DNA of 64,000 nt from a virus: the IMG/VR virus record IMGVR_UViG_3300044839_000009, positions 1-64,000 of that record, one strand, 5' to 3'. Below the pieces are notes generated by a model. The model worked only from the letters and a program-made list of their open reading frames with translations. It was not told the DNA's origin and made no database searches. The position numbers were made by a program, and so were the translations under genes. This document shows, one piece after another, positions 11,726 through 13,726 of this stretch. Positions within the stretch are counted from its first letter, which is position 1. The number at the start of each line of letters is the position of its first letter.

Positions 11726-13420
11726 CTACAGCCACGGCCACGTCGCGTCACGGCCGGACTCCAGGAGCGGGATCGTCCGGAACGCCTGGTCGGTGAGGCC
11801 GGCGAAGGCGTGGCGTTGGCGGCTGCCGGACGGTGCGTGCCCGACCCGGTCGCCGGCGAGGTTCCAGGTGTACATCGGAGTCGTCGCCGGGATCGACTGG
11901 TCGACGTCCACCGGGTTTGCCCCGGCCTGCTCGTCGGTGACGATGACGACGCGGTCGTGACCCTTGAACTCGACGCGGAGCGCTGCGGCGGTGTCGGCGC
12001 CGCCACCGAGGAACCAGCCGCCGTCCTTCCACTTCCGCACGTCGCCCAGCAGCGAGCCGCCCCGCGTGAGCGGGAACGCCTTCGTCTTGGCGCCGGGCCG
12101 GTCGTTGCGGTAGTACTGCGCGCTGGAGAACGACACCACGTCCGCCGACGCGCACCGCTGGCCGAGGGCGATCCCGAACAGGGCCGCGGCGTCCCAGCGC
12201 ATGAGGGTGCCGTCCTTGGAGAACGCGTCGTTCATCGAGCTGGACGTGTCCACCAGGATCAACGTCCGGCCACTGAGGAGCGGGATGTTGGAGAGCGACG
12301 CGGTGAGCGCCTTCTCCAGCGCGTGACCCCAGCGCAGCGACGGCGCGGCATTGAACGCCGAGTAGAACCGCATCGGCAGCTGACGGGACTTCGCAACCTG
12401 CTCCGGGTCAGCGAGTTGCTTCGCGACCTGCTCGGCGACCGCGTCCGATACGCCCGCCTCATCGAAGTTGCGGAGGTTCCGCAGCAGGGCCATGTAGCCC
12501 ATTGACGGAATAACCGCCTCCCACGCCTCCTTGTCCATCGGCCCCTGCAGCCAGCCGGCCAGCGCCTCCCATGTCATGCCCGCTCGGTTCAGCTCTCCGG
12601 CGGCGTCCACGTTCTCGGTCAGCAGGTGGCGGCGCTCAGCGACGGGCAGCGCCATGAGACGGGCCCGGTTGGCGAGGAGGTGCAGCCGTGCGGGGATCTC
12701 CTCTTGGCGGTTCTTGCGCCGGTCGATGGCGTGCTTGAACAGGTCGCCCTGCCACGGCTTCCCGTCGTCGGGTGCGGCGTGCACCAGCTCCAGCACGTCG
12801 CCGAACCGGTAGCCCTTGCTGTCAGTGTCGTACTTGAGGAGCGACCGCTCGCTGTAGAGGCGCTGGATGGCGTCGGCGATGCCGCGCTTCACGGGCTTGG
12901 GCAGGTTCCGGCCGTAGCGGGAAGTCCAGTAGGCCAGCAGCTCGCCGGGCTCGTCAGGGCGCTGGAGTACGGAGTCGATGACGCGCCGGTTGGACGCGGT
13001 CGAGTACGAGAGGCTGTCGCCGCCGAACACCTTGGAGGCCGGGTCGCCGCCCTGCTCGTGGATGCGGCGCTCGCGCGTTCCGGCCGCGTCAAGGCGGGCC
13101 TTGACGTACTCGCCGGCGCCGACGATCGCGGCGGTGCGCATGTTGCCGTCGCCGCGCAGCCACTCCAGCAGGCCGGCGGTCCACTCGGGGTCTTCGACGG
13201 CGAGCTGCCGGATGAGCTGGGTGTAGCGGTCGTCTCGGTCGCCGCCCTTCTCGTAGAAGGTGTCGGCGGAGACGAAGTTGGAGACGGCGAGGAGGTAGAG
13301 CTCGGAGCGTGCGTCGCGGAGGTGGCCGGTCGCGCCTTCGTAGGTCGCGGCGCGCTCCCCGGTCGTGGTCACGGGCGAGCTGACGGTCGGCTTGGCGGTG
13401 CGGACGTTGAACCTGGACAT
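11726..13420 (-). CDS. rsr: Ro60/Rsr ortholog (TROVE plus vWA domains)
   Basis: DTFYE, GNMRT, MTWE, MGYMALLRNLRN, SRQLPMRF, vWA MIDAS LVDTSSSM, VIVTDEQ. Confidence 0.92.
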   Translation of the reverse strand: MSRFNVRTAKPTVSSPVTTTGERAATYEGATGHLRDARSELYLLAVSNFVSADTFYEKGGDRDDRYTQLIRQLAVEDPEWTAGLLEWLRGDGNMRTAAIVGAGEYVKARLDAAGTRERRIHEQGGDPASKVFGGDSLSYSTASNRRVIDSVLQRPDEPGELLAYWTSRYGRNLPKPVKRGIADAIQRLYSERSLLKYDTDSKGYRFGDVLELVHAAPDDGKPWQGDLFKHAIDRRKNRQEEIPARLHLLANRARLMALPVAERRHLLTENVDAAGELNRAGMTWEALAGWLQGPMDKEAWEAVIPSMGYMALLRNLRNFDEAGVSDAVAEQVAKQLADPEQVAKSRQLPMRFYSAFNAAPSLRWGHALEKALTASLSNIPLLSGRTLILVDTSSSMNDAFSKDGTLMRWDAAALFGIALGQRCASADVVSFSSAQYYRNDRPGAKTKAFPLTRGGSLLGDVRKWKDGGWFLGGGADTAAALRVEFKGHDRVVIVTDEQAGANPVDVDQSIPATTPMYTWNLAGDRVGHAPSGSRQRHAFAGLTDQAFRTIPLLESGRDATWPWL

Positions 13421-13457
13421 AAAGAAGCCCCTCACATAGGAGGGGAAGCTCAGCAGT

Positions 13458-13603
13458 GGGGCGCCCGAGATCAAGGTCGGCTATCCGGTCAAAGCGCTCT
13501 AGGCCGCTGAGCTACCGCCGGCCCAGGGGCCAGTGGCCGGGATTCGAACCCGGGTCTCTCTCTTAGCAGGAGAAGAACGGATTTCCTGCGCACCGGGCGC
13601 CCC
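13458..13603 (-). ncRNA. yrlA: YrlA-like Y RNA containing a circularly permuted tRNA module
   Basis: Terminal stem GGGGCGCCCG/CGGGCGCCCC with GGTGCGCAGG...CCTTGATC; T arm CCGGG-TTCGAAT-CCCGG precedes the acceptor stem and D arm; directly upstream of Ro60. Confidence 0.85.
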
Positions 13604-13612
13604 GATGCTGTG

Positions 13613-13684
13613 CCTCCCGAGATCAAGGACGACCTGCGGCGGGACTTTTCCAAAGAAGTAGCCGCGGGTCTGCGCACCGGGAGG
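13613..13684 (-). ncRNA. Second, short Y RNA
   Basis: Same end motifs CCCGGTGCGCAG and CCTTGATCTCGGG; inner stem GACCCGCGGC/GCCGCAGGTC. Confidence 0.75.
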
Positions 13685-13703
13685 TGCATGAAGTTGTGGG
13701 GTC

Positions 13704-13726
13704 AGCGTACATGGTGACGGTGACAC
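13704..13726 (-). promoter_or_regulatory. Promoter of the Y RNA-Ro60 unit (TGTC-type)
   Basis: GTGTCA-N11-TACGCT, just after a hairpin (about 13746-13782) that ends the late operon. Confidence 0.55.

Follow-up and report, generated by a model that had tools for sequence, protein, structure and literature searches.

The window analysed here, positions 1 to 64,000 of the 87,406-base virus record IMGVR_UViG_3300044839_000009 (rated complete by CheckV), carries on its minus strand a short Y RNA, a long YrlA-type Y RNA and a Ro60/TROVE gene, in that order and with GC-rich hairpins at both ends. The locus belongs to a known type, in which a phage carries Ro60 together with YrlB-like and YrlA-like RNAs: matches of the protein to Pfam TROVE, to phrog_850 and to PDB structures, together with the anatomy of the RNAs, confirmed the initial annotation on this point. 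We consider it likely that the unit is a self-contained Ro60-Y RNA cassette of the actinobacterial type, in which one hairpin of the long RNA, known in print as the V stem-loop, is built as a class I anticodon arm and adds an extra contact to a tRNA mimic. Judged from sequence, this is a defensible re-interpretation of the published V arm, applying across Actinomycetota and not to phages only. What seems to be new is the anticodon-arm anatomy itself (a C-U-N-N-U-A-A loop, a covarying stem and a spacer of 4-5 nucleotides (nt)). It also seems to be new that real class II variable arms differ from this hairpin and that loop positions 34-35 change between sister loci while their flanks stay fixed.

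The long Y RNA spans about 146 nt (13458-13603, minus strand, as for all its parts) and is supported by a local Rfam YrlA match and by the homologue consensus; its 3' end (13458) lies 38 nt before the ATG of the Ro60 gene (13420), on the same strand. The two ends pair as the terminal and Ro60-binding stem (helix 1), with GGGGCGCCCGGUGCGCAG as 5' strand (13586-13603) and CCUUGAUCUCGGGCGCCCC as 3' strand (13458-13476), and a linker helix is formed by AUCCGUUC (13575-13582) and GACCGGAU (13483-13490). Directly abutting the 5' strand of the linker is the anticodon-arm-like hairpin UUCUC-CUGCUAA-GAGAG (13558-13574), which corresponds to the published YrlA V stem-loop; its strands UUCUC and GAGAG lie at 13570-13574 and 13558-13562, and its loop CUGCUAA at 13563-13569. 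The 4-nt spacer AGAC (13554-13557), equivalent to a class I variable loop and ending in a pyrimidine, leads to the T arm CCGGG-UUCGAAU-CCCGG (13537-13553, helix 4), part of the Rfam match. Next comes a closed acceptor-like stem (13515-13536), whose outer seven positions hold six pairs and one C-A mismatch and whose inner 8 nt close it. U8-A9 (13513-13514) separates this stem from the D arm GCUC-AGCGGCCUA-GAGC (13496-13512, helix 6), also part of the Rfam match, and after five unpaired bases (13491-13495) the D stem is followed by the linker's 3' strand. Every element listed in the initial annotation (the stems, the loop, AGAC and the T, acceptor and D arms) was recovered in its place on the minus strand, and the RNA can indeed be drawn as a complete circularly permuted cloverleaf. 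Compared with a canonical tRNA gene, the order of the arms is permuted and the acceptor stem is closed, but all four arms are present; neither ARAGORN nor the Rfam tRNA model called a canonical tRNA at the long RNA. The junction spacings are about 5-7 nt from D stem to linker, 0 nt from linker to hairpin, 4-5 nt from hairpin to T stem, 0 nt from T stem to acceptor and 2 nt from acceptor to D stem. Read in this way, the long RNA appears as a tRNA four-way junction with an extra helix that enters at position 26/27.

Chen et al. 2014 (PMC4201824) count 254 bacterial species and 22 phages with YrlA RNAs beside Ro60. They orient the V stem-loop as a tRNA variable arm and put the Ro60-side stem in the place of the anticodon stem, while for Wang et al. 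2018 (preprint, 10.1101/312249) YrlA "lacks the anticodon loop" and its long variable loops are likened to class II tRNAs; the statement in the initial annotation that the Ro60-side stem replaces the anticodon stem agrees with both. In the published view, the YrlA effector recognises the tRNA elbow of an RNA without an anticodon loop. The literature that we covered on YrlA, bacterial Y RNAs, tRNA mimics and Ro60 contains no work naming the hairpin an anticodon arm. The window RNA has several of the features by which Chen et al. describe the family: it is encoded at most 4 kilobases (kb) from a Ro60 ortholog on the same strand, it has a T arm, a closed acceptor and a D arm in this order with the conserved loop residues, and a less-conserved V stem-loop lies 5' of the T arm, introduced by the YUAY motif (here a UUC variant).

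The consensus of the Rfam YrlA model (RF02553) has no hairpin; its inner stem of 4 base pairs (bp) directly adjoins the D arm, and only a 4-nt variable loop precedes the T arm. A run of this model, as proposed with the initial annotation, gave a local match of 20.5 bits to the T, acceptor and D parts of the long RNA (model positions 28-81), below the gathering score of 69. At the gathering threshold no YrlA was found in the window or in 16 actinobacterial and phage loci; the best sub-threshold score (39.3 bits) was that of prophiGD43A-5, a full-length match in which the hairpin is mis-threaded onto the 5' stem strands. The proposal that the arm stands outside the standard model was right in so far as it is absent from the Rfam consensus and unpaired in the seed structure line, but the arm is the family's described V stem-loop. 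It is not a novelty of this phage either, since the same type of hairpin occurs in chromosomal rsr loci and in the published seeds. The seed loops of Chen et al. read CUUCUAA in M. smegmatis, CUCAUAA in Gordonia, CUUCUAA in Streptosporangium and AUUGAAA in phage ET08, all in hairpins left unpaired by the consensus structure line.

We compared the hairpin with the 51 distinct tRNAs of one Streptomyces genome. The seven distinct class II variable arms of that genome have stems of 4-6 bp and loops of 4-6 nt, with 1-2 nt of spacer at either side; the YrlA hairpin, which has a 5-bp stem, differs from all seven in its 7-nt loop, in the lack of a 5' spacer and in a 3' spacer of 4-5 nt. These 3' spacers (AGAC, AGGUC, CGGCC, UGGUC) end in a pyrimidine, and Wang et al. 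describe a conserved pyrimidine at the last variable-loop position as well as an arm size that varies across the family. The window RNA shows the traits of a class I anticodon arm: a 5-bp stem, a pyrimidine at position 32, U33, a purine at position 37, a 4-nt variable loop and then the T stem. In the Streptomyces genome, all tRNAs for codons starting with A have CU-NNU-AA loops, and YrlA loops are letter-identical to them; loops identical to those of real tRNAs are CUGCUAA, CUGUUAA, CUCAUAA, CUGAUAA, CUCUUAA, CUCCUAA, CUUCUAA and CUUGUAA. By sequence anatomy, an anticodon arm seems the better description than a variable arm.

The D arm and the V+T arm of the modules are 85-100% identical to real tRNAs, and tRNA-Glu-like traits of the D loop and V loop are confined to the subfamily with a 4-nt spacer, to which the module of the window belongs. 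The hairpin stems are near-constant whatever the triplet (UUCCA/UGGGG, UUCUC/GAGAG, UUCGC/GCGGG), unlike the stems of cognate tRNAs. Mimicry of a whole isoacceptor was rejected, as the best-matching isotype seldom agrees with the loop triplet. The reading "anticodon GCU = Ser" of the initial annotation likewise found no tRNA-Ser feature beyond the loop letters: a tRNA-Ser(GCU) mimic was rejected, with only seven loop letters matching, no long variable arm, a non-Ser D arm and another stem. In the real tRNA-Ser(GCU) of the Streptomyces genome, the variable region measures 20 nt, and the D arm and stem are not those of the module.

To place the hairpin among its homologues, we assembled 103 Ro60 loci, comprising the window, three GenBank phages (VanLee, BearBQ and prophiGD43A-5), 19 IMG/VR loci with 53-78% protein identity and 80 genome loci, the best of at least 562, mostly from Streptomyces, Amycolatopsis, Kitasatospora and Nocardia. 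In the 1 kb upstream of Ro60, a script detected 146 T-arm modules, which belong to 99 of these loci and lie in actinophages and in Streptomyces, Amycolatopsis, Kitasatospora and Nocardia chromosomes. In 83 of the modules, the motif [A/C/U]U-NNN-[A/G]A of the loop stands exactly 4-5 nt before the T stem, against 1-6 of 146 at other offsets. The 7-nt loop is conserved among homologues, and the objection foreseen in the initial annotation, that it might not be, fails. These 83 modules, chosen regardless of pairing, form five of five stem pairs in 45 cases, four in 21 and three or fewer in 17. Selection by stem pairing alone, a criterion that 15% of shuffled segments also pass, yielded 75 modules with C32 in 65, U33 in 71, U36 in 57, A37 in 67 and A38 in 69. 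Their spacer to the T stem measures 5 nt in 59 and 4 nt in 16, and their triplets are diverse (CAU 12, GCU 9, GUU 8, GAU 8, CUU 8, GUC 5, CCU 4, GGU 3, UCU 2, UGU 2, plus others). Seven of nine named phage records carry an anticodon-like hairpin, with the triplets UCU in VanLee, GCU in BearBQ, UGU and UUC in prophiGD43A-5, CCU in GiJojo, GAU in BRock, GCU in Neville and UUU in Rabbitrun; it is absent from the other two, Kela and Kradal.

Covariation was evaluated on two alignments: A4, with 34 full-length RNAs of 136-144 nt preselected by the loop motif and at least four stem pairs, and A3, with 57 sequences having a 5-nt spacer and preselected by the loop motif alone. A MAFFT alignment (A2) was left out of the pair counts, the gap between 4-nt and 5-nt spacers having fallen inside the loop. 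On A4, a six-helix structure is 97.6% paired versus 78.3% in shuffles (0 of 500 reach it), and 22 of its pairs show compensatory changes; when partners were slid by 1-3 columns as a control, pairing dropped to 37-52%. Helix 1 is 99.3% paired with three compensatory pairs, six of seven pairs are compensatory both in the linker helix and in the acceptor stem (helix 5), and the T arm and the D arm are each 100% paired (helices 4-6 overall, 97-100%). The hairpin helix is 92.9% paired on A4, with two pairs changed on both sides, in 7 and 10 sequences, and 81% paired on A3, with three such pairs. Among 68 unique hairpins, pair 30-40 is CG in 39, UA in 10 and GC in 6, and pair 31-39 is AU in 38, CG in 14, UA in 2 and GC in 2. 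Pairing in these hairpins reaches 79%, compared with 65% with partners taken from other sequences (maximum 69% in 1000 trials). RNAalifold on A4 predicted the terminal, Ro-binding, linker, T, acceptor and D helices. In addition, the A-C of a conserved UAC pairs with a G-U located 5-7 nt past the D stem (27/34 and 25/34 sequences), and the UAC-GU pairing of relatives is replaced in the window by UUC with GA, which is a compensatory change.

The triplet changes quickly along the Ro60 tree (102 rows). Sister loci often differ, as do L030 (GGU) and L032 (GUU), L004 (GCU) and L027 (GUC), L083 (CAU) and L087 (GAU), L038 (CAU) versus L039 and L044 (GAU), L019 (GCU) and L020 (GUU), and others too. Over 158 module pairs with a flank divergence below 5% (mean 2.2%), which are not independent of one another, positions 34, 35 and 36 differ at rates of 0.48, 0.23 and 0.03, respectively. 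By this pattern, positions 34-35 would be either unconstrained or diversifying. The fixed U33, U36, A37 and A38 match the loop form of tRNAs reading A-starting codons. U36-A37 is the determinant of t6A37 formation. Since U36-A37-A38 is not needed for a U-turn loop, its fixation suggests a sequence-specific reader of the loop.

The anatomy, conservation, covariation and distribution of the hairpin are direct observations; the following points weigh against taking it for an anticodon arm. The motif is absent from 63 of the 146 modules, and close to the window on the Ro60 tree both modules of L013 fail the hairpin test, one of them with a 6-nt loop, and no T-arm module was found in L015 and L026. 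Some of the 75 stem-selected modules must be due to chance because of the 15% of shuffles that pass. The percentages of pairing on A3 and A4 lean towards the hairpin because the sequences were preselected, which does not inflate the compensatory changes on A4. RNAalifold on A4 did not itself predict the hairpin, which was added by hand before its pairs were counted. Only two to three pairs carry covariation because the first two are mostly U-G, within an invariant UACUUC. When modules were un-permuted, ARAGORN called 67 of 67 with the arm and placed the anticodon in the hairpin loop in 66, a result that does not discriminate because 34 of 49 arm-less modules and 243 of 335 shuffled-arm controls were also called. 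A single-sequence fold of the long RNA (z -1.09) is no better than shuffles; the case rests on the comparison of homologues because single-sequence folds are weak and no promoter was found. Finally, a class II V arm is possible in three dimensions because the Salmonella crystal structure stacks the Ro-side stem as an anticodon stem (Wang et al. 2018), in an RNA without the hairpin, where the gap behind the D arm is of 1 nt only.

The published reading (Chen et al. 2014; Wang et al. 2018) is an alternative in which the hairpin is a plain structural, class II-like V arm that props the L-shape and its anticodon-like loop is an inherited leftover without a reader. The hairpin is dispensed with in Salmonella, in Pseudomonas, in the Rfam consensus and in the modules without the motif, and its size is variable across the family according to Wang et al. 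We nevertheless hold this explanation to be somewhat unlikely: C32, U33, U36, A37 and A38 are kept at 76-95% across genera while positions 34-35 drift, the stem bears compensatory changes, and the 7-nt loop with its 4-5 nt 3' spacer differs from the seven real class II arms. At the opposite extreme, the V arm of actinobacterial and actinophage YrlA could be a true anticodon arm in which positions 34-35 are rapidly reprogrammed and U33, U36, A37 and A38 are fixed, the loop being read by an anticodon-loop enzyme (the t6A37 machinery is a candidate), an anticodon nuclease or a toxin. We find this unlikely. If true, Ro60-YrlA would be a tRNA-damage sensor, a decoy or a repair template borrowed by phages.

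The function suggested with the initial annotation was that of a decoy or inhibitor, in which a Ro60-held, non-chargeable tRNA mimic soaks up or tethers anticodon nucleases or toxins and protects phage translation. Loops that are letter for letter those of real tRNAs would suit such a role, an arms race could give triplets that switch between sister loci with fixed flanks, and toxin-antitoxin genes adjoin the cassette in two named phages (HicA-like in VanLee, BrnT-like in prophiGD43A-5); an RLIG1-like RNA ligase is encoded in the same phage as the window cassette, and in Kela an RNA ligase gene adjoins the Ro gene. We judge it improbable all the same. Many Streptomyces have the arm too, at rsr loci of the chromosome that PhoX and GntR genes flank, and because it is common there a phage-specific counter-defence is not why the arm exists. 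Stems and bodies are unlike those of cognate tRNAs, the GCU module lacks the tRNA-Ser variable arm, the difference rate at position 34 is equally expected of unconstrained sites, abundance of the RNA would be required, and no nuclease partner is linked to the locus. Least probable by far, in our estimation, is a permuted pre-tRNA or two-piece working tRNA, opened by RNase P, supplied with CCA, and charged or processed to serve phage decoding. In vivo, RNase P cuts the YrlA of M. smegmatis, to which CCA is also added (Chen et al. 2014), and Wang et al. consider in their discussion a processing of the kind that circularly permuted tRNAs undergo. Of 67 modules, 56 form all seven pairs of the outer acceptor stem and 10 form six of the seven; in the window the 3' strand of this stem is followed by four C, which could be a discriminator and CC, and in GiJojo and BRock the Ro gene lies within a tRNA array. 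Free switching of the triplet between sister loci would be intolerable for a decoding tRNA, no bacterial enzyme that excises the linker is known, the GCU module has neither a Ser-type D arm nor a long variable arm, and the linker helix and Ro60 would stay attached.

Under the preferred explanation, an anticodon-arm build serving as an extra contact of a tRNA mimic, the conserved bulged helix of both RNAs would bind the Ro60 ring. The other end of the long RNA would present the permuted tRNA mimic (anticodon-like arm, 4-nt variable loop, T arm, closed acceptor and D arm), with the linker helix entering between the D stem and the anticodon-like arm. The resulting ribonucleoprotein would most likely link Ro60 with host proteins that recognise tRNAs and with enzymes of RNA decay or repair, a second tRNA-specific contact being made by the anticodon-like loop. 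Most likely the anticodon-arm build stems from descent of YrlA from tRNA sequence, the arm having been kept by selection within the mimic. Binding of a Y RNA by Ro60 is reported for the M. smegmatis, Salmonella and Deinococcus RNAs only (Chen et al. 2014), and by analogy the complex should form in this phage; expression in the phage, the effector and the benefit to the phage are what we infer. In published work, Salmonella YrlA is modified by TruB and DusA, and Deinococcus and Thermus-phage Y RNAs bridge Ro60 to PNPase. Should the actinobacterial V arm be an anticodon arm whose C-U-N-N-U-A-A frame is fixed, other YrlA partners would have to be considered, and anticodon-loop modifiers, synthetases and nucleases become candidates. 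The result also supports a tRNA origin of Y RNAs, and Wang et al. cite a model that derives YrlA from dimeric tRNA transcripts.

The Y RNA unit begins downstream of a GC-rich hairpin with a U-tract at the end of the preceding gene (13739-13783, minus strand), where the terminator scan returned the sites 13742-13761 and 13739-13754. The promoter proposed in the initial annotation was not recovered: a consensus scan for sigma-70-type promoters found none at the locus, and an actinobacterial-type candidate -10 element TACGCT (13704-13709, minus) was read by eye from sequence only. The short, YrlB-like Y RNA (13613-13684, minus) was assigned from its fold and from the strands that it has in common with the long RNA. 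It consists of a Ro60-binding bulged stem, a linker helix and a loop with a GCUACUUC motif, and has no tRNA-like module; its fold of -33.2 kcal/mol is modestly better than shuffles (z -2.5). Both Ro-binding strands, 5' CCCGGUGCGCAG and 3' CCUUGAUCUCGGG, are common to the two RNAs. The Ro-binding module of the window, GGUGCGCAGG, differs from the 5' YrlA motif GNCGAAN0-1G, and GGUGCGCAGG and CUUGAUCUC pair as a bulged helix, which resembles the GGUCCGA helix of animal Y RNAs, a contact site of Ro60 (Chen et al. 2014). Despite its other letters, this helix probably has the same Ro60-binding function as the GNCGAA motif.

Immediately 5' of the Ro60 ATG lies a terminator-like hairpin, CCCCUC...GAGGGG followed by CUUCUUU (13428-13445, minus), whose 3' arm GAGGGG is a likely ribosome-binding site. 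Its U-tract runs into the ATG, and the layout is the same in L008 and L009. This arrangement suggests that termination of the Y RNA is coupled to Ro60 translation. The Ro60/TROVE gene itself (11726-13420, minus) encodes 564 amino acids from the ATG at 13420; a longer open reading frame (ORF) starting with TTG and reaching 13474 was not taken. The ORF matched Pfam TROVE over residues 314-376 only (1.1e-15, 58.3 bits, cut-off 23), phrog_850 "RNA-binding protein" over residues 22-556 (9.5e-44) and the Thermus phage TROVE structures 9L5Y/9KOP over residues 24-102 only (3.5e-21). For the vWA-type C-terminal domain that Ro60/Rsr proteins have behind their TROVE ring of HEAT repeats, no model matched the ORF in these profile searches. 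Its nearest relative is the protein of L005, with 81% identity. The hairpin announced after the gene is present, as an 11-bp GC-rich hairpin 13 nt past the stop codon (11683-11713, minus) that forms the downstream boundary; it lacks a U-tract and was missed by the terminator scan because it has no T-run.

PHROG and Pfam scans of the window point to a temperate siphophage. They identified an integrase (2417-3694), an invertase (9269-9832), an endonuclease VII gene (11037-11552) that comes next after the Ro60 gene, a collagen-like minor tail gene (14909-15628), a holin (15947-16261) and an endolysin (16291-17709), with tape measure, major head, portal and terminase genes beyond the endolysin. 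The Ro60-Y RNA cassette is placed in an accessory stretch, with the lysis genes on one side and the integrase on the other. About 49 kb from it, a 255-amino-acid RNA ligase-like ORF (62144-62908, minus; phrog_14301, 1.1e-47; Pfam RLIG1 PF17720, 8.8e-09) is a possible RNA-repair gene, followed by a WhiB-like gene (63099-63356). A tRNA-like element (10535-10645, minus) lies 1.1 kb downstream of Ro60 on the same strand, flanked by two GC-rich hairpins. It scores 33.1 bits with the Rfam tRNA model (threshold 29). Its T arm is normal and its acceptor stem has 7 bp, but the D loop contains an inserted hairpin of about 32 nt and the anticodon region is abnormal; ARAGORN did not call it. ARAGORN did call a "tRNA-Val(cac)" of 97 nt at 44829-44925 (minus; Rfam tRNA 49.2 bits), with normal acceptor, D and T arms and about 39 nt where a 17-nt anticodon arm is expected, which could be an extended stem or an insert.

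On Streptomyces chromosomes, the Y RNA-rsr unit has PhoX on one side and a gene for a GntR-family regulator on the other. Of 190 neighbouring ORFs extracted, 34 were scanned, and these revealed no conserved repair gene; an RNA ligase occurred only in L043 and an RNase T-like gene only in L005. The Ro-like gene of Kela (L162) has an annotated RNA ligase gene as its immediate upstream neighbour, and in GiJojo (L160) and BRock (L161) the Ro-like gene and the Y RNAs are inside a tRNA gene array. A group II intron domain (L037 1974-2050, plus; Rfam 61.4 bits) was seen just upstream of a Kitasatospora rsr Y RNA region. In the tandem Y RNA array of prophiGD43A-5 (L003 3033-3191, minus), an Rfam tRNA match of 34.3 bits bridges 100 nt, taking its acceptor and D half from one Y RNA and its T and acceptor half from the one that follows, a layout that fits the published idea of a YrlA origin from tandem tRNAs.

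In three of the nine named actinophage records, a GenBank tRNA label overlaps the 5' half of a YrlA-like RNA that precedes a Ro-like gene: tRNA-Arg(tct) in Gordonia phage VanLee (L001 3637-3708), tRNA-Thr(tgt) in prophiGD43A-5 (L003 3192-3270) and tRNA-Arg(cct) in Streptomyces phage GiJojo (L160 1269-1343). ARAGORN likewise calls the Y RNA 5' half as a tRNA on many native loci. These three annotations are probably not tRNA genes, and Y RNA 5' halves annotated in this way inflate phage tRNA counts.

Among known systems, Thermus phage phiLo (NAR 2025, PMC12135203) resembles the window in having a phage Ro60 with two upstream Y RNA-like RNAs, Yrl1 and Yrl2, and its authors propose hijacking of the host PNPase. 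The phiLo Ro60 is distant from the window protein, with a match limited to residues 24-102 (3.5e-21), and the passages of that paper covered here mention no tRNA-like anticodon arm. The permuted tRNA genes of red algae and an archaeon (described via Wang et al. 2018) share with the window RNA that the 3' part of the tRNA comes first in the gene and the 5' part second, that the acceptor stem is at first closed and that the ends of the transcript pair mutually; their precursors, unlike the window RNA, are cut and ligated into working tRNAs. In the window RNA the break would fall at position 26/27 and carries a Ro60-binding helix, unlike in permuted tRNAs. We know of no bacterial processing pathway for permuted tRNA. 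Salmonella Typhimurium YrlA (RF02553; 6CU1) has the T arm, closed acceptor, D arm, tertiary-contact residues and Ro60 partner in common with the window RNA; it differs in a 4-5 nt variable loop without the hairpin and in a Ro-side stem that abuts the D arm (1-nt gap) and stacks as an anticodon stem. The YrlAs of M. smegmatis, Gordonia polyisoprenivorans, Streptosporangium roseum and phage ET08 (Chen et al. 2014) are just upstream of Ro60 on the same strand, as in the window, measure about 140-147 nt, and have a Ro-binding stem, a YUAY motif, a V hairpin, a T arm, a closed 7-bp acceptor and a D arm. The window RNA departs from them in a metazoan/Deinococcus-like bulged helix (GGUGCGCAG / CUUGAUCUC) in place of GNCGAA, in a YUAY motif that reads UUC with a compensated partner, and in a 4-nt spacer and a tRNA-Glu-like D loop (AGCGGCCUA). 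The hairpin that these RNAs have in common is presented in print as a variable arm, whereas in our analysis its anatomy fits an anticodon arm.

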